A stretch of DNA of 64,000 nucleotides from a virus, in IMG/VR virus record IMGVR_UViG_3300020196_000016, positions 18,595 through 82,594 of that record, one strand, 5' to 3'. The notes below the pieces were generated by a model, which did no database searches, had not been told where the DNA came from, and worked only from the letters and a program-made list of their open reading frames with translations. Position numbers and translations under genes: made by a program. Numbering within the stretch: the first letter of the stretch is position 1; every line of letters starts with the position of its first letter. Shown here piece after piece: positions 11,441 to 63,119 of the stretch.

Positions 11441-11680
11441 TCTCCACCATATTCCTTTGAAAGTTTATACTTATCTCCACTTTTCTCTATGATACCAAGT
11501 TGTTGAAGAAACTTCAACCTTTCTTCAAGAGATAGTTTTTTAAATGTTTCTAAACCTTTTAGGTTTTTTTGGTATAGTTCTTCTTTATTCACATTTCACC
11601 AAAAAAGAATATAGGTGTAGATTTTTCACCACACCTATATCCTATATCAATTTTGAATCAACCCAGAAAGCAAAATGCTA

Positions 11681-12019
11681 TCAGGGTGAAGGTGAAGAAC
11701 TCTCCGATGCCACACGATTGTTTTGATCGTTCTGTTCAACGGAAGATACATTCTCCGATGACGAGTTCGTAGGGGAAGCGACAATACCATAGATTTCATT
11801 GAAATCACTCCGCTTGAAAACACGAGAAGGACGACCGGGCTTTCCTGACTTCACCATAGCAATAGCTTCAATGTTCTTTTCATTAAACTTTTTCTGGATT
11901 GTTAGTCGTGTATGACCTGAAATCTTTTCAGCTTCATCAAGAGTGATCATTGTTTCATTCATATCACTCATTACGATTGTTGGAATCTTACTCATATTAT
12001 TTCTCCTTTGTTTTAGCAA
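11681..12019 (-). CDS. Putative helix-turn-helix DNA-binding protein
   Basis: ITLDEAEKISGHTRLTIQKK...GRPSRVF pattern; real start probably MSKIP after the AAGGAG RBS. Confidence 0.55.
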   Translation of the reverse strand: MLKQRRNNMSKIPTIVMSDMNETMITLDEAEKISGHTRLTIQKKFNEKNIEAIAMVKSGKPGRPSRVFKRSDFNEIYGIVASPTNSSSENVSSVEQNDQNNRVASESSSPSP

Positions 12020-12038
12020 TCACAACTCTGGCAGATCA

Positions 12039-12067
12039 ATTTTAGCATGATCCTTGCTGGCTGTCAA
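12039..12067 (-). promoter_or_regulatory. Sigma70-type promoter
   Basis: TTGACA-17bp-TAAAAT, extended -10. Confidence 0.85.
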
Positions 12068-12068
12068 A

Positions 12069-12290
12069 CTAACCGTCAGCGATCTTATCAAGTGTATGCG
12101 GGAAGTGTTGGCCTTCTTTTTCCAATCTTTGCCAAAGAACAACAACATGATTATTTAGAACTTGAATCACAACACCAACATCATCCATATATGGAATATC
12201 TTTTGCTGGTGCTCTAATACCAACTTTCCTCAAATCATCATACGGCTTCAATCTTACAAGACAACCAACATGAAAATGTGTCTTCACCAT
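12069..12290 (-). CDS. GDL-like SH3-type small protein
   Basis: FHVGCLVRL...GVVI...VVVLW. Confidence 0.7.
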   Translation of the reverse strand: MVKTHFHVGCLVRLKPYDDLRKVGIRAPAKDIPYMDDVGVVIQVLNNHVVVLWQRLEKEGQHFPHTLDKIADG

Positions 12291-12359
12291 ACGGTATTCC
12301 TTGGAACAGAGATAAGGAAAGTGGAGCGTTGTTTAGACGCTCCACAATCCATTACACGA

Positions 12360-13625
12360 TTACTTACGCTGCTTCACTTCAACAGCGATAACCCGTTCAT
12401 TGGTCTTGAAGTACGGGTTTCGTGCATTATCTTCGTCAGTCATCCACATACGCTGACACTTTGACGGAATAGGCTTGGGAGCACACATATCGGTCAAGAT
12501 AATATGACCGTCAAAGTTCCGCTCATTCACAAATTTGGTGGGAGTATCAAAGTTCGTACCACCACAAAGAACACGCTCTGCCTTCTTCTTTTGACCCTTC
12601 TTCCAAACATAAACCTTATCTTCGGCAACACCATCATCAAATGGAATAACCGTGAACTCTGCAAGTTCAGCCAGATTATCAAGTTCAGCAAAGAACGTGA
12701 TAAGCATATTATCACTCACAGAACCCGACTGGTCAATACTGATCGCAATCTTTGCAGTACGATTCGTCTTGCGACCCGCATGAATATACGGGAAACGACG
12801 ATTGATCTTGCGAACACTATTCTGCTTATCTGCCTTCTGGCTGGTTTTGATAAAATACCGCAAGACCTTCTTCCAGTCAACCTTGGATTGAAGACGCTTG
12901 ATAATATCCTTACGCATGGACTGTGAGATCGTACCCCACGAACCAGAACGATTAGCCTCGTTTGCAGCTTCATTCATAGCTTGACGCAAACGCTCCTTTG
13001 CGAGTTCACGCACTTCTTGTGGAATGGGATTCTTTCCATCTTCACCCCATCCTTCATGGTCGTCAAAGCCACTACCATTACCTTCACCATCTTGTGGCTG
13101 TCCGCTTCCACCACCACCTTCACCATTACCTTGGCCTTCACCTTGACCATTACCTTGACCTTGTTCCTCTTGCTTTTCCTTGATCTTGTCAAAGTAAAAG
13201 TCAGCGGATTCACCGCGAACAAAATCAGGATATGGTGCCTTGCCGGGAAGCAAACACATATCCCAAAGATTCTTAATAGAATCCTTACATTCCTTTGGAA
13301 AAATCTCGCTGTTGATCGCAAGATCAGTAGCATGATTCCACATACGCATTTGCGACTTATCAGGCATACGTCCCGTGACGTGTTCCAGAATAAGATGCAT
13401 GAACTCGTGCTTCAACACGATCATAACTTCTTCATCACTCAACTTCTCAAAGAAGTCAGGATTGTAAAGCATCTCAAAGGTTCCCGAATCCGGGTTAATA
13501 CAAACACCGGCAGTCGGAATCCTATTGGTGGGATACTTTTCAATATGACGAGAAAGAGCCGCATAAAACGGTTCTTCCTTGAGATAACGAGCAAGATGAC
13601 GATTCAGATCATAGTTAGACGACAT
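12360..13625 (-). CDS. DUF2201-type putative metallopeptidase with VWA-like domain
   Basis: HEFMH zincin motif, WNHATDLAIN, Gly/Gln linker, IDQSGS MIDAS, GGT.F, ILTD. Confidence 0.88.
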   Translation of the reverse strand: MSSNYDLNRHLARYLKEEPFYAALSRHIEKYPTNRIPTAGVCINPDSGTFEMLYNPDFFEKLSDEEVMIVLKHEFMHLILEHVTGRMPDKSQMRMWNHATDLAINSEIFPKECKDSIKNLWDMCLLPGKAPYPDFVRGESADFYFDKIKEKQEEQGQGNGQGEGQGNGEGGGGSGQPQDGEGNGSGFDDHEGWGEDGKNPIPQEVRELAKERLRQAMNEAANEANRSGSWGTISQSMRKDIIKRLQSKVDWKKVLRYFIKTSQKADKQNSVRKINRRFPYIHAGRKTNRTAKIAISIDQSGSVSDNMLITFFAELDNLAELAEFTVIPFDDGVAEDKVYVWKKGQKKKAERVLCGGTNFDTPTKFVNERNFDGHIILTDMCAPKPIPSKCQRMWMTDEDNARNPYFKTNERVIAVEVKQRK

Positions 13626-14081: not shown

Positions 14082-14158
14082 TGGTAGACCAGGTGGGAGT
14101 TGCACCCACGACATTCCGCTTATAAGACGGACTCTCTAACTAACTGAGATACTGGTCC
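14082..14158 (-). tRNA. tRNA-Ile(UAU)
   Basis: GGACCAG acceptor stem, anticodon loop CT-TAT-AA, encoded CCA; T-loop reads TGCAACT. Confidence 0.88.
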
Positions 14159-14161
14159 ATA

Positions 14162-14440
14162 TTATAGTTTGTGATAGTTGAAATAAAACTTTTCAAGATC
14201 AGTTGTGTAAATACATTTCATTTTCTGTGAATAGCATTGTACCAACTTTACATCTTTAAGAACATTTACATTTTGCGGAGATACAAGACCCATTACAATA
14301 ACAACATCATCTTTTTCCATTCTAATCAATTCAAAATTATTAGACGGCTTCAAGATATTATATTCATTATGACGAATCCAGAAAGAGCCGGGACAAACAC
14401 TATTCTGGAAAGTGCTTTTCATTCTATTCTTGCGTCCCAT
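14162..14440 (-). CDS. Hypothetical protein
   Basis: AGGTG RBS, intact ORF. Confidence 0.65.
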   Translation of the reverse strand: MGRKNRMKSTFQNSVCPGSFWIRHNEYNILKPSNNFELIRMEKDDVVIVMGLVSPQNVNVLKDVKLVQCYSQKMKCIYTTDLEKFYFNYHKL

Positions 14441-14447
14441 ATATCAC

Positions 14448-14681
14448 CTATTTTGCTACTGGATATACAATAACTTCTTTGTTTCTTACCCAATCATTTA
14501 GCAAAGAAAAGCCGACTTTATTATCTTTTGTCTGATCGTAATTATCATAATATTCCCAATGAAAAAGATAATATCCTCCACCATACCAATCATTGTTATT
14601 GATTCTATCAATTATAACACCATTGTATACCAGAAACATTGGATTGTTGACTATCACTAAATCGCCAACATCATATTTCAT
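14448..14681 (-). CDS. GDL...PV family small protein
   Basis: MKYDVGDLV...IVYPVAK. Confidence 0.85.
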   Translation of the reverse strand: MKYDVGDLVIVNNPMFLVYNGVIIDRINNNDWYGGGYYLFHWEYYDNYDQTKDNKVGFSLLNDWVRNKEVIVYPVAK

Positions 14682-14917
14682 ACAGAAATAACTTTCCACT
14701 TTCCGAACTTGATAAGTTGCTTGATTGTGGATGGATCAGCACCCCACTCTTTATGATCTCCAACATTCCAAAGCATAATATAGTGATACAGCTTATCGTC
14801 CGGGACACGAAGAACAACACCGGTACCACCAGTATCACTTTGGATCAAATCACCAACTTTGATATTGAGATTATTGTTTTCAGTCATATTTAACCCAATA
14901 TTAGAAGTCAAAATCAA
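14678..14917 (-). CDS. GDL-family small protein
   Basis: NIKVGDLI...WKVISV; real start probably MTENN. Confidence 0.75.
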   Translation of the reverse strand: MILTSNIGLNMTENNNLNIKVGDLIQSDTGGTGVVLRVPDDKLYHYIMLWNVGDHKEWGADPSTIKQLIKFGKWKVISV

Positions 14918-15239
14918 GAGAGCGATTCAAACGAATATTAAACGGAGTTTCCCAAGTTCCCTTTGATGTATAATCATTATCATCTTCACCAAGAACGTGA
15001 TATGAATAATCATCTTGATTAAGATCTTCAAGTTCTTCAATAAATTCATTTACTGCCTTGACTTCCGGATAATCATCATACCACTTTACATCGTGAAACT
15101 CAACAAGTTTCCAGCCATTACATTCATGAATCTTGGAACCATCAATAAAGTTAGCAGCAACACGATCTTCCATTGTCTTGATAAGTTCAGAGAACCTTTC
15201 ATCTTTGAGAGCAAGAAGAACATCACTACGATAACCCAT
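14901..15239 (-). CDS. Hypothetical phage protein (MGYRSDV type)
   Basis: GGAG RBS before ATG 15239; VKWYDDYPEV and LGED motifs. Confidence 0.75.
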   Translation of the reverse strand: MGYRSDVLLALKDERFSELIKTMEDRVAANFIDGSKIHECNGWKLVEFHDVKWYDDYPEVKAVNEFIEELEDLNQDDYSYHVLGEDDNDYTSKGTWETPFNIRLNRSLDFDF

Positions 15240-15445
15240 ATTATCTCCGGTAGTTAGTGTTAAAGAAATGGTGGATATATCTAACGCTTTCCACCGAAAC
15301 GTCTTACCAGATATGGTATAATGATATAACGCCAAAGACACTTGACGGGAGAACACAATAATGTAGCCTACTATGCTAGTTGACTCCTATTCACATAGTA
15401 AGTATCATAAACACAGTCATGTCATAATCATGCTCATGTTTATAC

Positions 15446-15531
15446 TGGTGCCGAGAGTGGGACTTGAACCCACAAGATATTGCTATCAGAAGTTTTTGAG
15501 ACTTCCGTGTATACCATTCCACCATCTCGGC
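15446..15531 (-). tRNA. tRNA-Leu(CAA)
   Basis: GCCGAGA acceptor, anticodon loop CT-CAA-AA, long variable arm, GGTTCAAGTCC, CCA. Confidence 0.93.
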
Positions 15532-15562
15532 ATAACCCTATCTGTATAAGATAGGGTATTTT

Positions 15563-15825
15563 TTAGGCAAGAGTCAATAGGCAATTCTTAAAAATCTTTA
15601 CAACACGAATATCAGTAAAATCAACTACATCTCCACCCTCAAGAGCCACAATATTATCATCGGTTGTGAAAATCCAAGCAGCACCTTCATCACAAATAAT
15701 AACATCACCTGGCTCTGGTTCAGGAACTTATTGATTTGATTAATTTTAGTAAGCAGATCGTTATCTGCAATACTAACTCGGAATTGAATTTCTTTGAATG
15801 ACTTATTTTTTTGTTTATTGATAAT
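15563..15825 (-). pseudogene. infC: Truncated translation initiation factor IF3 C-domain (ATT start) joined out of frame to another gene's 3' end
   Basis: AGGAG RBS, ATT start, KEIQFRVSIADNDLLTKINQINKFL resembles the IF3 C-domain; similarity stops at 15721. Confidence 0.6.
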
Positions 15826-16013
15826 ATAATACTCCTTTGTTAATAATATACCGACGCCAATTCTGGCCTGACATTCTCAATAACAATCTCATCTTCTGGA
15901 ACACTTACACTAATAACTCGTTCATGCTGAACGGTATCAGTATCACCGTGAACAAAAGAAGCGAGAAGAATAAAAAACTTACTAAACATATCTCTTTCTC
16001 CTTTATAATACAA

Positions 16014-16089
16014 TGGTGGATCGGGTGGGGGTCGAACCCACGACCAATAGATTAAAAGTCTACTGCTCTACCAACTGAGCTACCAATCC
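16014..16089 (-). tRNA. tRNA-Lys(UUU)
   Basis: Canonical cloverleaf, anticodon loop CT-TTT-AA, GGTTCGAC, CCA. Confidence 0.95.
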
Positions 16090-16172
16090 AAAAAAGAATC
16101 CGTTTTTATCACAGAACGGATAAACTGTTTAGTGTTTTGCGGTTCAGAGTTTACACTAACAACTCCATTATC

Positions 16173-17234
16173 TCACTTCGGCTTCTTACCAGTCAGCAGT
16201 TCCGAAAGAAACTTGGAAGGCGAAGTTCCATCAACATTGATCTGGTGAAGAGCAGTAGTATTTTCCACCATACCCTTACCAAGAACATGCCACATCTTCA
16301 TAGCAGCTTCGGAAGGCAAGCTGATGAAATACCGTGCAAGATTCTCCAACTGATCCTTGGGCATCTTCTTTGCAAGGAAACCCTTGGCCTCAATCTTATC
16401 AATAAGAGCACAATGCTCAATGATACCAAACTTCTTCACCTTATCAAACTTACCATTGACGATAACGTCTTCGGGCGTAACCTGACGATCATACTTCTCC
16501 ACGAAGTCGTGAAGGGCAATCGCAGCCTCATAACCAACAAAACCAACTGCGATATTGCGAATATCCTTCATGTTGTTTTCGCTGAACATATCAGCAGAAG
16601 TCAACACATCATTACAACGCTTCCACGAACGACGAGAAGGATACACCTTATTGGGTTCAAAGTCACCCTTATGCTCAAGGTGTTCACGATTCAGATTGAT
16701 GAAATCGTAAACAAACTGATTAGTATTGTTCTTCGCCCAAGTGAGCCAATCTTCCACAGTAGGCGCAAGATCAAAGGTAGTCCACCGATCAAGTTCGGCG
16801 GGGTCCATCTCACCAACCTGATATTGTGCTCCGCTTTCGCCACCGTTGACAGCGGCAACAATAAGCGTATCGGGATGGAGAGTATGACCGTTCAGCTTAC
16901 GAGAATCAGTAAGTTCAAAGATACCTTGACGAACTTCAATAACTGCACGATCAACTTCATCAAGGAAGAGGAGAACGGCATTATTACACGCCATCTTGAA
17001 CCAGTCCGGGGGATTCCACTTGGTAGAATCACCGGAGATCACGGGCAACCCAACAAGATCACCCTCGGTCATCTGTGATGCACGGCGTTCAACAACCGGA
17101 AGATTCCTTTCCGCTGCAATCTGATACACAACTTGCGACTTGCCAATACCGTGACGACCACGGAGAAGAAGCGGCAACTTATTATCCAGAATCGGCTTAG
17201 CGATACGGAAGAAAGTATTGAAATCGAGCTGCAT
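16173..17234 (-). CDS. MoxR-like AAA+ ATPase
   Basis: Walker A GRHGIGKS, Walker B LLFLDEVDRA, MDPAELDRW, PSRRSW. Confidence 0.9.
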   Translation of the reverse strand: MQLDFNTFFRIAKPILDNKLPLLLRGRHGIGKSQVVYQIAAERNLPVVERRASQMTEGDLVGLPVISGDSTKWNPPDWFKMACNNAVLLFLDEVDRAVIEVRQGIFELTDSRKLNGHTLHPDTLIVAAVNGGESGAQYQVGEMDPAELDRWTTFDLAPTVEDWLTWAKNNTNQFVYDFINLNREHLEHKGDFEPNKVYPSRRSWKRCNDVLTSADMFSENNMKDIRNIAVGFVGYEAAIALHDFVEKYDRQVTPEDVIVNGKFDKVKKFGIIEHCALIDKIEAKGFLAKKMPKDQLENLARYFISLPSEAAMKMWHVLGKGMVENTTALHQINVDGTSPSKFLSELLTGKKPK

Positions 17235-17312
17235 TGTTTTCTCTCTCTAGTTTATCGTTATCTGACTTAGATCATCGTGCGGGATTGCCCGGTGATCTTT
17301 CCGACCCGTTGC

Positions 17313-17341
17313 ATCATAGCATGGATCGCGTTCGCTGTCAA
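17313..17341 (-). promoter_or_regulatory. Sigma70-type promoter
   Basis: TTGACA-17bp-TATGAT, extended -10. Confidence 0.88.
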
Positions 17342-17378
17342 CACACACTAACTTGCTTACAGTATAAAATACAGTAAG

Positions 17379-17453
17379 TGGAGCCAACGACAGGATTTGA
17401 ACCTGTATCTCGCACATTACAAAAGTGGAGTTTTACCGTTAAACTACATTGGC
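17379..17453 (-). tRNA. tRNA-Thr(UGU), anticodon stem imperfect
   Basis: GCCAATG acceptor, loop TT-TGT-AA, GGTTCAAATCC, CCA; two mismatches in the anticodon stem. Confidence 0.75.
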
Positions 17454-18580: not shown

Positions 18581-18865
18581 TTATGGAACATTCTTTTTTA
18601 CCCTTAACTTTTTTAGTCTATTATGTTTGATAATTGATTTGCCACTTTTTGGAACAAACCTTTGCCAATGAACATTGATAAGCCAACAACTATTACCTTT
18701 TTTTACTTCTAAAACAACACCAATATCGTCTTTTTCATATTTATAAAAACGAACAAGCTGTAATGCTTTTGCTCTCATTTGCACGAAATCACCAACTTGG
18801 AATGGTGGTATTTCTTCTGAACTTTTATTTGTCTCACTCATTAATTTTATAGCCAATTTCCTCAA
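18581..18865 (-). CDS. GDL-like SH3-type small protein
   Basis: FQVGDFVQM...IGVVLEV...INVHW. Confidence 0.7.
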   Translation of the reverse strand: MRKLAIKLMSETNKSSEEIPPFQVGDFVQMRAKALQLVRFYKYEKDDIGVVLEVKKGNSCWLINVHWQRFVPKSGKSIIKHNRLKKLRVKKNVP

Positions 18866-39297: not shown

Positions 39298-39789
39298 TTA
39301 TAGTTTATTACTCATTGAAAATATATCTGGTTGTGATGGTGGTTTCTTTGGATTACCAAACTCAACAACCATTGATGGAAATGGTGCTGAATTCTTCTGT
39401 CCTCCAAATTTTAATCGGCCTTTGATAAAAGAAATGCTCTTCACAAGAACTGGATCCATACAAAATTCATGGAACCACTTTGTGTCTGTTCTTGCTGGCA
39501 GCAACATTACAACTGTTGTGTTTCCAGAAATAACTTCGTGATATGCTTTACAAACCCAATCATATGTTTTGCTATATGGTGGATTGATAAATACAGTTTC
39601 ACCTTTCCAGCTTTGTGCTAATCCATTTTCTTTTATTGTATAATGTTTAGCACATTTATTATTTGTTCCATCACTTGCCGGATCAAGTGTGAAATTATAT
39701 TTCTGATTCAATTTGTCAAACATATTCTGTGGAGTAGTCCATTCATCACTCTTATGACTAAACAATACATCCATATCTTTTTTCAACAT
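39298..39789 (-). CDS. Phage N6-adenine methyltransferase (Dam-like)
   Basis: DEWTTPQ, FTLDPA, FINPPY, LLPARTDT.WF, GRLKF, APFPS. Confidence 0.92.
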   Translation of the reverse strand: MLKKDMDVLFSHKSDEWTTPQNMFDKLNQKYNFTLDPASDGTNNKCAKHYTIKENGLAQSWKGETVFINPPYSKTYDWVCKAYHEVISGNTTVVMLLPARTDTKWFHEFCMDPVLVKSISFIKGRLKFGGQKNSAPFPSMVVEFGNPKKPPSQPDIFSMSNKL

Positions 39790-40307
39790 ACCTCACCAAC
39801 ACTTTCTTGTTTTAACAAATGCTTTTTTATAAAGGTTTGATTTTCTTTTAAGGAAACCCAACGCAAATTTTCTATATTGTTATTAAGTGGATTGTTATCA
39901 ATGTGATCTACAACACAACTTTCTCTTATGAATTTTCTCGCACTTTCTGGTGTGATATCCCATTCATTTTTTGGAATAGGAGGATAATCATCAATAGATT
40001 TAAATGTTTCTATTACAAGTCTGTGAACTGAAATAGTAATTCTACAAGTTTTAGCTTTCTTACTTTCTCTTCTATATTCAAAATCTTGATATAGATCGAT
40101 AGGTATACACAGAGCTATTGATTGTCGAGCACCCTTAAAAGAACCTTTTCCAGTTGGAACTTCATTTTGTTTTTTTAAAACAAAACCTTTTTTATTCCTA
40201 ATCCTACCAAGATTAGAAACTTCATATCCCGGTAATACTTTTTTATTCTTTATTGCCGGTTTCCATATTTCTTCTTCACTTATTAGTGTCTGTGCTGCCA
40301 AATCCAT
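39783..40307 (-). CDS. NUMOD4-HNH homing endonuclease
   Basis: EIWKP...YEVSNLGRIR, VHRLV, VDHIDNNPLNN...NLRW. Confidence 0.92.
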   Translation of the reverse strand: MDLAAQTLISEEEIWKPAIKNKKVLPGYEVSNLGRIRNKKGFVLKKQNEVPTGKGSFKGARQSIALCIPIDLYQDFEYRRESKKAKTCRITISVHRLVIETFKSIDDYPPIPKNEWDITPESARKFIRESCVVDHIDNNPLNNNIENLRWVSLKENQTFIKKHLLKQESVGEVC

Positions 40308-41142: not shown

Positions 41143-44100
41143 TCACCCAATTAGTTTAAATGATTTACCGATAGACCTTGTGCTAAATCCCCAATCTTCC
41201 TGATAGTCAAGTTTTGCGACGTATGGATGATTGAGGTGGATTACGTCCTTCTTTGGATCATAACTCCAACATTTAATTTTTGTTACGATGTTTGTTTCAT
41301 CAATCGCTTCTACAATCAAATAATGTTTTCCATTCTTTGTTGTTTTCTTTTCAAGACCTTTTGGAATAAACCAGCAAATACCAAGTTCCGCATCATATTC
41401 TCCAAGTGGCGGAACCATCTTTTCAGCAAGTTTCTTTTGGACTTCGTCCGATACAATCATATTGATAGGATACACACCTGTCAACTCCAAAGTGTTGAGA
41501 ATTTTTTCGTCTCTTGTAAAATCTCCTTCGGGAGCATAAGTTTTAATATTCTCTGTGAGATTATCTGGCTTGCGAGGACGATCAACAGCAATAGCAGACC
41601 AAAAATGTTTTGCTCCAGTAAAACGACTATCCATTAAGGATACAAGAGCTTCGCTGCGGCAAAGAGCATCAACATTCTTTTTATTTAGTTTACTATAACT
41701 GATTCGTGGATGAAAAAGGAATTCTTCAATCGTCTTGAAAGGACGATGATCCAGAATTTCTTTAATCGCAGCATCACCTACACCTTTAATAGCTGAAAGC
41801 GGCTGTATTAAGGTTTTTCCATCTTCACTAATCTCCCATACATTTCCGGACTTATTTACATCAACCGGCTGAACGATAAATCCAGCAGCTTTTACAATAT
41901 TTACTGCTTTTTCTTTCTTGCTATCCGGCTGACTATCGAGATAAGCAGCAAGCCATTCACTTGGATAATAGTTATACAACCAAGCACATTGGAATGAAAT
42001 AATAGAATAGGAAACGGCATGAGATTTATTAAAGCCATAGCCAGAGAAGTAAATAAACTTCTGCCATAGTTTCTCACCAATCTCTTTACCAAGTCCCCTA
42101 TCTATACAACCATTAATAAACTTGTCGTGTAGCTTTTCTTTTACTTCTGCTTCTTTTCCTGTGCCTTTCTTGGTCAATACTTTTCGGAGAGAGTTGCCCT
42201 CGTCAAGAGAAATATCACGACCAAGTTTATGAGCGAGAAGAGCAATTTGTTCTTGGAAGACGAGATATCCATATGTTTCGCTTGTCGCCTCTTTGATTAG
42301 TTCATGTTCGTATACAACATCGTCAGGATTATGCTTGCTTTCAGCAAATGATTTATCAACACCGGCTGAAAGTGGACCGGGACGGAAAATAGAGGTAATA
42401 GAAGAAATATCAACGATATTATTTGGTTTTACACGCTGACAAAAATTCTGTGCTCCACTTTCTGTGAATTGGAATACGCCAGCCCATTTACCGGCATGAA
42501 AGATATTTTCATACACATTCTTGTCGTTCATATCAAGAACATCTGGATGTAGATTTTTCATATAGAAATCTTTTACATCGTTGAATGTTGGATTCTTGAT
42601 ATTCTTGTGGCGACGAAGAATATGTTGAACACATTTCTCAATCATGTTAAGAGTTTCAAGACCAAGAACGTCAAACTTAATAAAACCCATAGGTTCAAGG
42701 TGACGGACGTTTTGACCTTCACTCCAAGGTGTTTGACGAACACCCTTGCTATTGATTAGTGGCATCCATTCATCAAGATTTTCACCAACTACAATACCGC
42801 CAGCATGACGAGAAGCTGAACGGATTGAACCATGTAGCTGTTCAATATGTGTCTTAATGTGTGGATATGTAGAGAGGAATGTTTGAAGGCTTGGCGAATA
42901 TTTCATCACTTCTTCAAATGTTGGATTATAAATACCAGCAGTAATTCCATGCTCCGCTTTCGCAAGTGGTGTAGCTTCAAGCAACATTTTGTTCGTTACG
43001 GCATTTACTTCTTGGAAATCAACACCATAGAACTTACTAATATCCTTGATAAGTGAACGCAGTTGTAGTGTATTCCAATTTGTAATTGGAACAACATTAT
43101 TCTGACCCCATTCATCAATAAGGTTCTGCTTTAATCCCATCGCATCGCTTACATCATAATCAATGTCGGGATAATCTGTTGCTGTTTTGGAAAGAAAACG
43201 CTCAAATTGGAGTCCGTGCTTAATTGGATCAACTTGTGTAATTCCAAGAACATAAGATACAAGAGCACCAGCAGCAGAGCCACGACCGGGACCAGTAATA
43301 TAACTTTGATTAGCGCGATCAGAAATCGCTTTCATGGTCAAGAAATATTTAGCAAATCCACGTTCCTTGATCACATCAAGTTCACGCAATAGCCGATCAT
43401 GATATTCTTTATTACTCCACTTTTTCATATCTCGCAAACCTGCTTCGGCAAGTTCATCAAGCACTTGTTCAGCAGTTTTATCTTTTGGAAGAATAAAGTT
43501 TGGAAGACGAACAGTATTATCTGGAATAAAGTTTTCAATACGATTGTGGGCGATATTCCATGTTTCCTCAATTGTATTGAGGATGAAAGCATCATCGTAT
43601 TTTACACCACACTTGGCTGAATACTTTTTATACGCTTCCCACATCTGATCGCCATTCTTGGGATATAGAGTATATTCCATATCATCAACGCTATCAGGAA
43701 GTGCAGTATCCATATTCTTGCTACCAAGAAAGCCAAGTTTCTTATAGATTTCTCGGTCTTTCCAAGCACCGGGAGTTGGATAATGACTATCTCCAGTAGA
43801 AATAACTTTGATACCGAATTCTTCACAAATTCGGATAATCAATTTATTCAATTTATGCTGTTCCTGGATACCATTCCATTGAACTTCGCCATACCAACGA
43901 TCACCAAAAATATCAATCATCTTGCGTGATGTTTCACGCATAGCATTTAAAACAACATCTTCGCCATTTTCCCAGTTTTCCCAAAAGTCATTAGCATACA
44001 CTCCACCCAAACAGGCAGAGGCGGCAATAATACCTTCATTATATTTCTTTAGAAGTTCATAATCAATACGAGGAAAACGATAATAGTTTTCATCTGAAAA

Positions 44101-44599
44101 ACTCTTTGAAATAAGAGTGAAAAGATTGTTTAGACCTTTCTGGTTCTGTGCGAGAAGGACGAGATGAGAACGCCGATTGAGAACACTCTTTTTAGTCTTC
44201 TTTGTCTCTTCTTCGTTTTCAACGATTGCGCCTGTGATCTCCTCGTCCTCTTTTTTGCTTTTTGTTGTTTTTTCAATTTCTTCCTTATCTTTCCGCCATT
44301 GGGCAATAGATGGATGAAAGTACATTTCACAGCCATAAATTGGCTTGAAATCCTTTTCTTCCTTTTTCATCTTCTTGGCATGAAGAACTTGATATGAAAG
44401 TCCATTCATATTTCCGTGATCGGTTAGTGCGAGAGCATCCGAACCATTAGAATATGCGAAATCCATATGTTCATCTGGATAACCCAGACCATCAAAAATG
44501 GCACCATTAGGAAAAGCCCGAGTGTGCGTGAAGTCCAACGAACTTGATACGCGAAACGAGCTTTTCCTTGATGCCTCCTTTCTCGTTAATAGGGGACAT
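41143..44599 (-). CDS. dnaE: DNA polymerase III alpha subunit, 5' end interrupted by 10 extra nt (44500-44509)
   Basis: GAGGT RBS and ATG at 44599 give ...FVGLHAHSGFS-stop; the +1 frame continues IFDGLG...LTDHG, GRGSAAG, PDIDYD, KFDVLGL, YGFNKSH. Confidence 0.93.
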
Positions 44600-44617
44600 A
44601 TATTTAACCTCTTTTGT

Positions 44618-44803
44618 TTATTTAACTACGGGAAAATATTTTGTGTTTGGATATATTTTAAACATATGATCTAATTCATAAGTCCAAAGTTTCATGCTAC
44701 GTTTATCTGCTTGTAGCACAATATACTTCTTTTTTTCTCGGCTCACAATAGTCCAAACAACGCCATTGTGGACGATAACATCCCCAACTTGATATCTGGA
44801 CAT
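44618..44803 (-). CDS. GDL...PVVK family small protein
   Basis: MSRYQVGDVI...TKYFPVVK. Confidence 0.85.
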   Translation of the reverse strand: MSRYQVGDVIVHNGVVWTIVSREKKKYIVLQADKRSMKLWTYELDHMFKIYPNTKYFPVVK

Positions 44804-62623: not shown

Positions 62624-63119
62624 CTATGCTGCAATAAACTCATTTACAATAAACTTACCGTGGTGTGCATCACCATATCGTTCAAGGAAATGGTTTGTAA
62701 TATTACTTGGACGACCGACAAGACCGATCATATCACGATTCTTAAGAGTGTTCACTTCTCCCAGATCATCAACATATACAACTCGGGAAACACCTGCGTT
62801 CTTTAGGGCATGCTGACAGAGCGGACAAGGCTTTCCGTTCTTGTTTTGACGAGCATACGGGCACGAAGTGTTATTAAAACGATAAATATAAATTTTGCTA
62901 CCACTTGCTCGTTCTCCCATCTTGCTCAACAGATCAATTTCAGCATGCATAGAACACTTGAACACACTCTTGTTTCGTGAATAACGACGCTTATTGACGC
63001 CGAAGTTAATAATCTTGCCACCCTTGACACCAAAGGCAACAATCTGATGCTGGAGAGTATCATCCCGAAATTGGGATGCAATATCTTCAGCGAGGTACTA
63101 CAAAATCAAGATACTTCAT
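62624..63119 (-). CDS. Zn-dependent cytidine/dCMP deaminase-like protein, 5' end interrupted by 10 extra nt (63095-63104)
   Basis: HAE and PCPLC motifs; AGGAG RBS and ATG at 63119; the main frame is open only from 63097. Confidence 0.85.

Follow-up and report, generated by a model that had tools for sequence, protein, structure and literature searches.

Organization of the dnaE locus

The window, the whole 64,000-nucleotide stretch analysed here (positions 18,595 to 82,594 of the IMG/VR virus record IMGVR_UViG_3300020196_000016), carries on its minus strand a dnaE gene that is divided between two reading frames. Read directly, the sequence runs from ATG 44599 through 30 codons (MSPINEKGGIKEKLVSRIKFVGLHAHSGFS) ending in HAHSGFS to a TAA at 44509-44507, and the remaining 1,118 dnaE codons lie in the +1 frame relative to this ATG. 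The list of open reading frames correspondingly holds a 30-residue frame at 44507..44599 and a 1131-residue frame at 41143..44538 in the +1 frame, the latter containing PHP, DNA_pol3_alpha, finger and HHH_6 domains according to a domain search. This confirms the initial annotation of the locus, made from the letters alone, in which the PHP motif of dnaE was described as split by stop-containing bases. The features are as follows.

44608..44613, minus strand: Shine-Dalgarno-like AAGAGG, 8 nt 5' of the start codon (sequence read directly)
44552..44599, minus strand: start codon and N-terminal extension, codons 1-16, MSPINEKGGIKEKLVS; carries the 5' arms of the hairpin described below
44510..44551, minus strand: codons 17-30, RIKFVGLHAHSGFS, a rebuilt stretch of N-terminal coding sequence in frame with ATG 44599, specifying the first strand and the HxH of the PHP domain
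44510..44512, minus strand: UCC, final sense codon before the stop, candidate for take-off or shifting; rarely used for Ser (4.4 per 1000)
44500..44509, minus strand: 10-nt insert (coding gap), TAATGGTGCC; UAA at 44509-44507, with GCC at 44502-44500 as candidate landing triplet
44497..44499, minus strand: AUU, first codon after the gap and candidate resume codon, +1 frame; invariant in insert alleles
41143..44499, minus strand: dnaE body, 1,118 codons and stop, +1 frame; PHP, polymerase, finger and HhH domains

The ten bases are a real, stop-containing insert within PHP motif I. Without 44509-44500 the window reads as its closest intact homologue, P0003 (90% identity), ...FVGLHAHSGFSIFDGLGYP..., and P0003 aligns without gaps to the solved DnaE structures of Escherichia coli (4jom) and Thermus (2hpi). 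The expectation that deletion of these bases would restore the motif was borne out by the spacing in 117 of the 120 best homologues, all 117 of which have an uninterrupted PHP motif. The second His and the Asp are separated by six residues in 20 of these intact proteins, by seven in 97 and by nine in none; removal of the ten bases leaves six. The initial annotation had also considered a single-base error in a gene whose homologues read GFPNGA in frame, a reading found in 0 of the 117. The exact 10-mer of the gap occurs once in the window, and with at most one mismatch there are four matches against 2.69 expected, so that it is no dispersed repeat.

UCC followed by UAA is present in all seven contigs that bear the insert, with UCC itself invariant; alleles that lack the insert use TCT, TCA or AGT for this Ser, and at the resume position insert-less relatives have ATT, GTA, CTT or ATC. 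Intact homologues begin MTERK..., nine codons later than the extension-bearing start. The N-terminal extension is confined to insert-bearing alleles and is found in all seven contigs.

Two conventional ways around the stop were rejected. A different genetic code or a suppressor tRNA is excluded in that the 82.6-kb record encodes only tRNA-Ile(TAT), Leu(CAA), Lys(TTT) and Thr(TGT), and readthrough of the UAA would meet a second stop four codons further on in the window.

Occurrence and selection

The seven insert carriers are the window and six further IMG/VR contigs (L004/L083, L082 and L272-L275), whose DnaE bodies are 60-82% identical to that of the window at the amino-acid level. The exact window protein, P0146, is itself present on seven contigs. 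In Logan contigs from the independent lake runs X9, X13 and X17 (records 19, 4 and 11) the site matches the window letter for letter, and a second lake allele (records 20, 5 and 12) is likewise free of any insertion or deletion at 44500-44509; this comparison rests on these three runs, X20 having no coverage of the site. The independent lake assemblies thus reproduce the site, and the insert is no assembly error.

A stop codon in an essential gene, taken alone, looks like either a dead polymerase allele of defective phages or an artefact. Either explanation is highly improbable here, as the same insert recurs in independent assemblies, in seven contigs from different samples and in three lake runs; a sequencing or assembly error is ruled out by these independent contigs and lake assemblies. 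The ratio dN/dS over the 1,118 codons of the body is 0.098 against L004 and 0.049 against L005, and the body is open throughout. A pseudogene is ruled out by these values (0.05-0.10) and by the lack of further disruptions, so that the earlier opinion that decay was unlikely can be strengthened to its exclusion, and compensatory evolution inside the element (see below) is likewise at odds with a dead allele. The dnaE gene is under purifying selection and is functional, and full-length DnaE requires recoding that joins codon 30 (UCC) to AUU at 44499.

The element is conserved far beyond its host gene, being 86-94% identical among carriers at the nucleotide level compared with 60-82% amino-acid identity in the bodies (dS 1.32). 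Its distribution is patchy. At least seven changes are needed on a 37-row tree (five of them forced by starred branches), against a mean of 7.4 for shuffled labels, and insert carriers are therefore no more clustered on the tree than shuffled labels. Among the cluster members listed, a +1-frame leader reading ...AFPNG(A/T)I... or ...AFPNDAI... is present in 10 of 63 and 4 of 46. Only three element types are known as DNA, and two more have been deduced.

Searches for further examples returned little. The gap pattern retrieved only the known contigs and two unrelated chance matches from IMG/VR, and only seven unrelated chance matches from GTDB genomes; all 80 of the 80 metagenome dnaE loci lacked the insert. 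Among GenBank phages there was no match by blastn, and the best tblastn matches were below 30% identity, indicating that there is no cultured relative. No close relatives of P0009 were found in IMG/VR, and protein searches with the N-terminal leader returned cluster representatives only. No published report of a gap or frameshift in a phage dnaE was found in a search of main texts, and supplementary tables such as Table S2 of 10.1101/2022.08.31.505936 may list cases.

A 10-nt insert type common to dnaE and a deaminase gene was considered and rejected, since the deaminase gene conserves only T-G/C-TAG and GCTGA and not the letters that it shares with the dnaE gap. The layout of the deaminase gene is itself real, being conserved in 20 of 20 related loci, and RNAalifold gave no hairpin comparable to that of dnaE at these loci (consensus energy -2.05 kcal/mol).

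The nuclease cassette

An open reading frame for an Endo I-type nuclease (Phage_endo_I) lies directly upstream of dnaE in all four loci L272-L275; a search for relatives of this nuclease returned the same four contigs only. In L273 the protein has 267 residues and is encoded at 11613-12413. In L273-L275 the original dnaE start is retained upstream, cut at the same codon, as a remnant (MTERVKSVIPFVNLHGHSTFSIR followed by a stop) with its own ribosome-binding site, and the rebuilt region of these loci duplicates this cut-off start; in L272 the remnant is fused to a small open reading frame. Insert-less members of the same cluster retain the N-terminus of their own lineage. As seen in L273-L275, the full cassette begins with the cut-off dnaE start and a small open reading frame, followed in order by the gene for the Endo I-type nuclease, a new ribosome-binding site with its ATG, the 16-codon extension, the rebuilt N-terminal codons and the 10-nt gap, of which UAA is the first triplet. 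The form in the window is reduced and lacks both the nuclease gene and the remnant. The gap variant in L272-L275 is TAATGGAACC.

The nuclease adjoining the converted site, the patchy distribution and the co-conversion of the flanks are features of free-standing homing cassettes, and as far as the gene layout can tell the element appears to be one. The 5' end of dnaE has been occupied by three nuclease families, GIY-YIG (L001/L003), LAGLIDADG (L005/L006) and Endo I-type (L272-L275), which suggests that three homing nuclease families compete for this one site. The cassette was invisible in the single stretch on which the initial annotation was based, and it accounts for the existence of the insert.

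The layout bears on whether the enzyme is made in two pieces, with a 30-residue peptide freed at the UAA, the body started separately (for example at AUU 44499) and the two parts associating non-covalently. The stop codon is real and presumably lies in a strong termination context. There is also a precedent, since according to the available text of Manning & Atkins (10.1101/2022.08.31.505936) the T4 MobA cassette divides its target into two polypeptides, which nonetheless assemble. The arrangement at dnaE nevertheless makes such an enzyme, or termination followed by reinitiation, improbable. The body lacks a conserved start codon or Shine-Dalgarno sequence: TTG 44538, which had been entertained as the functional start, is ruled out because this codon is CTG in L004/L082 and TCG in L272-L275, and the window does not have the ATG that L004 carries in the +1 frame. 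The first strand of the PHP barrel and two metal ligands would need to come from the peptide. Moreover, if a free peptide sufficed, the surviving remnant reading frame would serve, and a rebuilt in-frame copy with a new start would be superfluous.

The 76-nt mRNA hairpin

The insert was earlier suggested to fold locally as AATG-GTGC-CATT. This local hairpin is not supported (minimum free energy 0 kcal/mol, z +0.54); the real structure is a 76-nt hairpin in which the insert is paired with codons 9-11 of the N-terminal extension, about 65 nt away. Its parts are as follows.

44500..44575, minus strand: 76-nt mRNA hairpin, -36.5 kcal/mol, with the gap as its 3' end
44575-44569 with 44506-44500 (gap), minus strand: outer helix, 7 bp
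44568-44557 with 44520-44509, minus strand: main helix, 12 bp, taking in UUU-UCC and the U of UAA
44508-44507, minus strand: AA bulge
44552-44526, minus strand: inner hairpin, ending 13 nt 5' of UCC

The hairpin has z values of -3.71 and -3.10, with none of 200 shuffles equally stable, in contrast to insert-less control alleles, which are unstructured (z +0.22 and +1.15). Every variant retains all 29 of the 29 pairs (145 cells, 100% paired), and compensatory changes occur at three pairs, two in the gap-extension pairing and one in the inner hairpin, compared with 29-52% pairing and no compensatory change in slid controls. Pairing is also kept by all of the further changes deduced from proteins. 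The hairpin is thus specific to insert alleles and is conserved with covariation. Read in the +1 frame, the gap substitutions are non-conservative (Ala to Thr, Gly to Asp) yet preserve pairing, and variation in the extension (Ile to Ser or Thr, Lys to Arg) likewise tracks RNA pairing. The short AAUG-N4-CAUU stem is invariant, and covariation therefore speaks neither for it nor against it.

A conserved, covarying helix has the gap at its base and terminates precisely on the last base of the gap, as might be expected if the ten bases were lost from the mRNA, through a micro-intron or a hairpin-guided cut and rejoining, or skipped by RNA polymerase. This is very unlikely. Only the four tRNAs in the window pass the Rfam gathering threshold, and no intron, ribozyme or other known RNA family is among the matches; nor is there a homopolymer that would permit transcriptional slippage. 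We know of no self-splicing or bulge-helix-bulge intron as small as 10 nt, nor of any system in bacteria or phages that would ligate mRNA in this way. Bypass of the whole hairpin, from codon 8, was also rejected, because the first strand and the HxH would then be lost and because the skipped codons hold lineage-specific residues common to insert-less relatives.

Proposed mechanism and significance

Judged from sequence comparison, there is about an even chance that ribosomes bypass the 10-nt gap and make one DnaE polypeptide. In this reading the ten bases form the right-hand terminus of a mobile homing-nuclease cassette, inserted into dnaE precisely behind the motif I Ser codon, and the gap may stop the rebuilt gene from re-creating the nuclease target site, conferring a putative immunity. 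A ribosome would stall when its P site holds UCC and its A site UAA, and peptidyl-tRNA(Ser) would release its codon. The mRNA would slide by 10 nt, possibly pulled by the inner hairpin and the main helix, both of which re-zip in the wake of the ribosome. The tRNA would re-pair at GCC through two of three positions and decoding would restart at AUU, giving the canonical ...GFS/IFDG... protein.

Several observations count against the hop. The take-off and landing triplets are unmatched, UCC and GCC (ACC in L272-L275 and in the lake allele) agreeing at positions 2 and 3 only. The UAA is followed by U, an efficient terminator context in E. coli. The outer helix, which holds the gap, can form only after the ribosome has passed; its covariation is real, but the model leaves its part in the hop unexplained. 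Finally, no variant has a stop in the +1 frame of the gap, which reads NGA, NGT or NDA, and a plain +1 shift could therefore serve.

Such a shift, a programmed +1 frameshift at UCC-UAA-U of the prfB/antizyme type, would read AAU GGU GCC AUU, adding the three residues to the metal-binding loop, and would be stimulated by the upstream duplex re-zipping near the E site. The initial annotation had raised a +1 slip as an alternative, and it is indeed a serious rival; the objection that it would lose the conserved Ser does not hold, since a shift at UCC-UAA keeps it. The stop codon immediately follows the final sense codon, and a G-rich CGGGC, where re-formation of the main helix begins, is located 4-8 nt 5' of the P-site codon, which we take to be the position of the internal Shine-Dalgarno sequence of prfB. 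As far as the available text of the two reports goes, upstream refolding hairpins stimulate a +1 shift at a stop codon on 70S ribosomes (PMC6321510), and the usual shift site of antizyme is UCC-UGA (PMC5009743).

The product, however, would have nine residues between the second His and the Asp, a spacing seen in none of the 117 intact homologues (six or seven), and the solved DnaE structures align ungapped to the intact form. The UCC tRNA would re-pair poorly on CCU, with a mismatch at the first position, and only the UUU in the E site would re-pair. Substitutions in the three extra codons are non-conservative and track pairing in the RNA, not the protein. Both release factors recognize UAA. 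In the 70S experiments, according to the portion of that report available, the hairpin-dependent shift took place only without RF2 (PMC6321510). On balance a frameshift is possible but doubtful. If it took place, it would be an unusual one, at UCC-UAA and with a three-residue insertion in a metal-binding loop.

To our knowledge, T4 gene 60 is the sole bench-proven case of natural programmed bypass in phages. We tentatively propose, at somewhat less than even odds of being correct, that dnaE represents a second, independently evolved family of programmed bypass, with a minimal 10-nt gap, unmatched codons, a long-range hairpin that zips behind the ribosome and an Endo I-type cassette that moves among DnaE genes down to 60% identity. 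Were this true, ribosome hopping would be a general route for selfish DNA into essential genes, beyond T4. A hop at dnaE would provide a compact and variable natural system, in which the helices covary and several variants of the gap occur, for studying what drives forward sliding and how a landing site is chosen without codon matching. It would also account for the truncated or wrongly started replicative polymerases that gene callers predict in a widespread group of lake phages.

Comparison with known systems

The nearest parallel is the T4 gene 39/mobA/gene 60 cassette with its 50-nt translational bypass, which is described together with its relatives in the accessible parts of two reports (10.1101/2022.08.31.505936; 10.1101/2024.12.09.627546). 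The dnaE cassette is likened to it by layout, with no claim of sequence similarity. In both, a selfish nuclease cassette resides inside an essential replication gene which it cuts at a conserved metal-binding motif, and the downstream part has gained a new start and, with it, an N-terminal extension peculiar to it and a homologous stretch that was rebuilt. In both, a stop directly follows the final sense codon and a stem-loop lies a few bases to the 5' side of take-off (13 nt here, 9 nt in T4). Pairing of the mRNA on its exit has been proposed, in the part of the T4 literature available, to drive the gene 60 bypass, and the gap bases of dnaE are similarly predicted to pair with upstream mRNA after leaving the ribosome. 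In both systems, forms that have lost the nuclease retain the gap, and the distribution among relatives is patchy.

The two also differ. The dnaE gap is 10 nt rather than 50, its take-off and landing triplets do not match, and it has no stable A-site stem-loop (AAUG-N4-CAUU, as given above) and no room for a mini-Shine-Dalgarno sequence; it is paired instead with the distant N-terminal extension. The upstream remnant is only 23 codons long and fully duplicated, unlike that of gene 39/gene 60, and the nuclease belongs to the Endo I (PD-(D/E)XK) type, MobA being HNH. The target is DnaE and not a topoisomerase; in the accessible portion of Manning & Atkins (10.1101/2022.08.31.505936) all known relatives of the T4 gene 60 bypass are in one topoisomerase gene.

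With prfB (CUU-UGA) and antizyme (UCC-UGA) the element shares a location close to the 5' end of the gene, a stop in the A site just behind the shift codon, a new frame that is +1, and a purine-rich or duplex-forming stretch beside the E site. Unlike these, the UCC of dnaE is unable to re-pair in the +1 frame and the stop is UAA; the nine additional bases would insert three residues absent from every homologue, and the signal travels with a mobile cassette and does not regulate the product of its own gene. The free-standing homing endonucleases of T-even phages (seg, mob; intronless homing) similarly lie between or at the edge of conserved genes, with co-converted flanks and with different families at one site, but the dnaE cassette lies within a reading frame and needs recoding, and does not occupy an intergenic spacer, intron or intein.

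In the available text on the refolding hairpins of Cho et al. 2013 (PMC3639245) and Huang et al. 2018 (PMC6321510), a stable duplex re-forms right behind a stop-paused ribosome, as the dnaE duplex is predicted to do. Those hairpins are engineered or coronavirus-derived and cause one-base shifts, in contrast to the dnaE duplex, which is natural, has 19 bp and takes in both the shift site and the gap. The dnaE element thus follows the cassette logic of T4, but in another gene, with another nuclease family and with a gap five times shorter.

The dnaE reading frames

The virus record is 82.6 kb long with a G+C content of 35%; its bases 18595–82594 form the window, and the runs containing window sequence are lake-water metagenomes. 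The start of dnaE shows the following features.

8 nt 5' of ATG 44599, minus strand: RBS-like box AAGAGG, read from the sequence
44599 to 44509–44507, minus strand: 30 codons from ATG 44599, MSPINEKGGIKEKLVSRIKFVGLHAHSGFS, with stop TAA at 44509–44507
44509–44507 to 41143, minus strand: +1 frame, uninterrupted from the TAA

The +1-frame product has PHP, polymerase core, finger and HhH domains and is a complete polymerase of the DnaE type. P0003, the nearest intact homologue at 90% identity, reads ...KFVGLHAHSGFSIFDGLGYP..., which is the reading obtained when 44509–44500 are deleted and the two window frames are fused. The PHP motif is unbroken in 117 of the 120 best homologues, the exceptions being two N-terminally short gene calls (P0004 and P0009) and an intein-bearing fragment (P0013); in the intact proteins, six residues (20 proteins) or seven (97) separate the second His from the Asp. 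Alignment of the intact form with the DnaE structures of E. coli (4jom) and Thermus (2hpi) is free of gaps. Judged from these comparisons, the break in dnaE is a 10-nt insert.

Across the whole record, TCC, the codon preceding the gap, is rare (4.4 per 1000), TAG terminates only three of 53 ORFs of at least 150 aa, and four tRNA genes are present (Ile-TAT, Leu-CAA, Lys-TTT and Thr-TGT; window 14082–17453).

Occurrence of the insert and selection

Logan contigs from three runs not marked as potential origins of the window (X9, X13 and X17) are identical to it across the insert site; a second allele in these runs differs at 7–8 positions and is free of indels at the insert. Six further IMG/VR contigs with the insert (L004, the same contig as L083; L082; L272–L275) came from pattern scans and from relatives. 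The best 80 of 530 IMG/VR relatives include 79 loci whose N-terminus could be used, 78 of them insert-less, and the insert is absent from 80 of 80 metagenome loci (best 80 of 271). The only gap length among the sequences sampled here is 10 nt. The dnaE body is under strong purifying selection, with dN/dS values of 0.098 against L004 (dS 1.32) and 0.049 against L005. Decay or an artefact is an unlikely account of the break, being contradicted by this selection and by the recurrence of the same insert across samples, and a sequencing or assembly error or a dead gene was ruled out on those grounds.

Of the 63 members listed for six 90% clusters, ten have gene calls that open with the +1-frame leader (...RAFPNG(A/T)I... 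or ...RAFPNDAI...) and six have calls starting at MDFAYSNG, one of these from the window's own contig; 28 are intact, four start elsewhere past the motif and 15 are fragments. The leader is also found in four of the 15 listed members of a seventh cluster and in none of the 31 listed members of nine additional clusters. Calls with the leader probably betray further copies of the insert, many alleles of which are known from protein calls alone and not from DNA.

An insert-specific hairpin

Insert alleles carry nine additional N-terminal codons that are absent from intact genes, and bases 25–100 of the ORF (44575–44500) are predicted to fold as a single hairpin (−36.5 kcal/mol) with the following parts.

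Codons 9–11 with the final seven insert bases, minus strand: outer helix, 7 bp
Last two bases of UAA, minus strand: AA bulge
Codons 11–15 with CGGGCUUUUCCU, including UUU-UCC and the U of UAA, minus strand: 12-bp helix
Codons for KFVGL, minus strand: inner hairpin

For this hairpin z is −3.71 and −3.10, none of 200 shuffles being equally stable; two insert-less alleles gave +0.22 and +1.15 in the same folding test. Across seven DNA copies, which represent three element types, 29 of 29 pairs are standard in all 145 cells. Three pairs differ at both members (outer helix, C-G to U-A and A-U to U-A; inner hairpin, C-G to A-U) and two at one member with pairing kept, while a control with partners shifted by 1–3 columns is 29–52% paired and has no compensatory changes; the distinct sequences being few, shuffle counts here are indicative only. 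The protein leaders imply a G to A change in the gap that would turn a G-U pair into A-U and a C to U change in the inner hairpin that would give U-G, both keeping the pairing, and the lake allele appears to have a compensated outer-helix pair of its own; the basis here is amino acids and the count of unlisted differences, not a DNA read. The G-U pairs and the changes into G-U indicate a structure of the sense-strand RNA.

A small hairpin, GCCAUU-UUU-GAUGGU (window 44484–44502, minus strand; −4.4 kcal/mol, five of 200 shuffles equally stable), links the candidate landing triplet and candidate resume codon with the codons for Asp-Gly. At the first pair the window has G-U and L004 has G-C; L273 would have A-U, provided the register is the same. 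This hairpin and the outer helix are mutually competing folds.

A mobile cassette

Identity of the 85-nt element is 86–94% across contigs whose DnaE bodies share only 60–82% residue identity. In the DnaE body tree, from which P0007 and P0010 were left out for want of an anchor, insert and insert-less genes are interleaved: the window's neighbours are the insert-less L005, P0126 and P0127, and the L004/P0165 body is near-identical to the insert-less P0168 and P0174. The tree has at least seven state changes, five of them forced by starred branches, which is not fewer than with shuffled labels (mean 7.4).

In L272–L275 a 267-aa ORF terminates 3 nt upstream of the new dnaE start. It scores 32.4 bits against Pfam Phage_endo_I (cut-off 29.1) and also hits endonuclease and resolvase families of PHROG. 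The original dnaE start is retained with its own RBS ∼1.2 kb upstream in L273–L275 (MTERVKSVIPFVNLHGHSTFSIR-stop), truncated directly past the Ser codon, the same codon as the position of the 10-nt gap; the L272 remnant is shorter and joined to a small ORF. Insert-less members of this cluster read MTERVKSVIPFVNLHGHSTFSVFDG..., and its insert alleles read ...RIKFVGLHAHSGFS / IFDGLGYPDEH..., matching the window's lineage. To judge from these readings, the dnaE 5' sequence of the latter is imported donor sequence. The window, L004 and L082 have neither nuclease nor remnant. In the lake allele, 1,669 additional letters lie between 44616 and 44584, with a beginning like a dnaE start (MTERKMS) and an end resembling the nuclease 3' end. 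The element is in all probability a mobile cassette.

Small ORFs (60–120 aa, start MxYxVGD) recur upstream of dnaE in the window (44618–44803), L004 and L272–L275; one such ORF lies within the nuclease cassette in L273–L275, and another is fused to the old dnaE-start remnant in L272.

Other homing endonuclease genes sit at this position ahead of insert-less dnaE. A GIY-YIG gene with NUMOD3 is at the same place in L001 (3181–3957) and L003, as is a LAGLIDADG gene in L005 (3166–3963) and L006. The first ∼25 dnaE codons there are unusually divergent (HCHDGFSLFDG and HSHTGYSIHDG). Both genes overlap insert-less dnaE starts, and three or more families of nuclease thus compete for the dnaE 5' end.

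L082 has a second dnaE interruption (∼5969–7194, ∼1.2 kb; proteins P0169 and P0171) ∼2 kb downstream of the insert, and the second gene call opens with an intein-like C-terminal motif, so that one gene would host two kinds of selfish element. P0013, on a different contig, matches PF14890 (intein splicing). The window also has, ∼0.8 kb downstream of dnaE, a 174-aa ORF for an HNH_3/NUMOD4 homing endonuclease (39783–40307, minus strand), flanked by the dUTPase and methyltransferase genes; no connection between it and the dnaE gap was found. A LAGLIDADG_1 endonuclease ORF in L004 (318–755) is ∼3.2 kb upstream of the insert-bearing dnaE and not adjacent to it.

Joining of the two frames

The N-terminal codons are rebuilt in frame with the new start and must therefore join the body, since the original remnant would otherwise suffice. 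A ribosomal hop over 10 nt, joining UCC to AUU, is favoured because it alone gives a product with the family spacing, because substitutions in the gap, read in the +1 frame, are non-conservative yet preserve pairing, because the stop directly follows the last sense codon, and because a stem-loop ends 13 nt 5' of that codon and further helix could zip up on mRNA exit. From the inferred geometry, a 10-nt slide would permit seven additional base pairs of the 12-bp helix. The covarying outer helix could form only once the ribosome is past it, so its role is unexplained by the hop model, and folding found no stable A-site stem-loop for the hop. The lack of a match between UCC and GCC/ACC is another weakness of the model.

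A +1 shift at UCC-UAA-U is a less likely but credible alternative: it would retain the Ser, and the stop in the A site together with the duplex beside the E site makes it mechanistically sound, but it would add three residues found in no homologue. A split enzyme or reinitiation would leave the frames unjoined and is unlikely, there being no conserved start codon, as is removal of the ten bases at the RNA level, which would proceed without any known machinery. No published account of a gap or a frameshift in a phage dnaE gene turned up in literature searches.

The cytidine/dCMP deaminase gene (PF00383; window 62624–63119, minus strand) has a break of a similar kind. ATG 63119, with an AGGAG RBS, opens a 10-codon ORF with stop TGA, and the body follows in the +1 frame, where a TAG precedes it. 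This layout is present in 20 of 20 related IMG/VR loci (L245–L264, 63–88% identity), in which TGA and TAG are both invariant, even synonymously (GCT is the only Ala codon used ahead of the TGA overlap), and the codon past the putative gap varies as a coding hydrophobic residue (L/I/F). A covarying small hairpin surrounds the start codon; a long hairpin like that of dnaE was not found at the break in the related loci.

Comparison with T4 gene 60

In Manning & Atkins (10.1101/2022.08.31.505936), the gap of T4 gene 39/mobA/gene 60 is held to protect from the cassette's own nuclease, some T4-type cassettes retain the gap without the nuclease, and MobA-type cassettes are all in the topoisomerase gene. 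Helix zipping as the mRNA exits the ribosome is the proposed driver of T4 bypass (Manning & Atkins; Wills et al.). By analogy, the ten bases in dnaE may block the rebuilt gene from restoring the nuclease target.

The dnaE stem-loop ends 13 nt 5' of the codon for take-off, compared with 9 nt in T4. Unlike T4, dnaE has unmatched candidate take-off and landing triplets (UCC versus GCC/ACC) and no stable A-site stem-loop, and because of these two differences no membership in the T4 family is claimed. The likeness lies in a nuclease and in a gene that is split at a metal-binding motif, extended by new N-terminal codons, provided with a rebuilt stretch of homology and left with a gap opening on a stop, and by this analogy the dnaE element would work like the T4 cassette.
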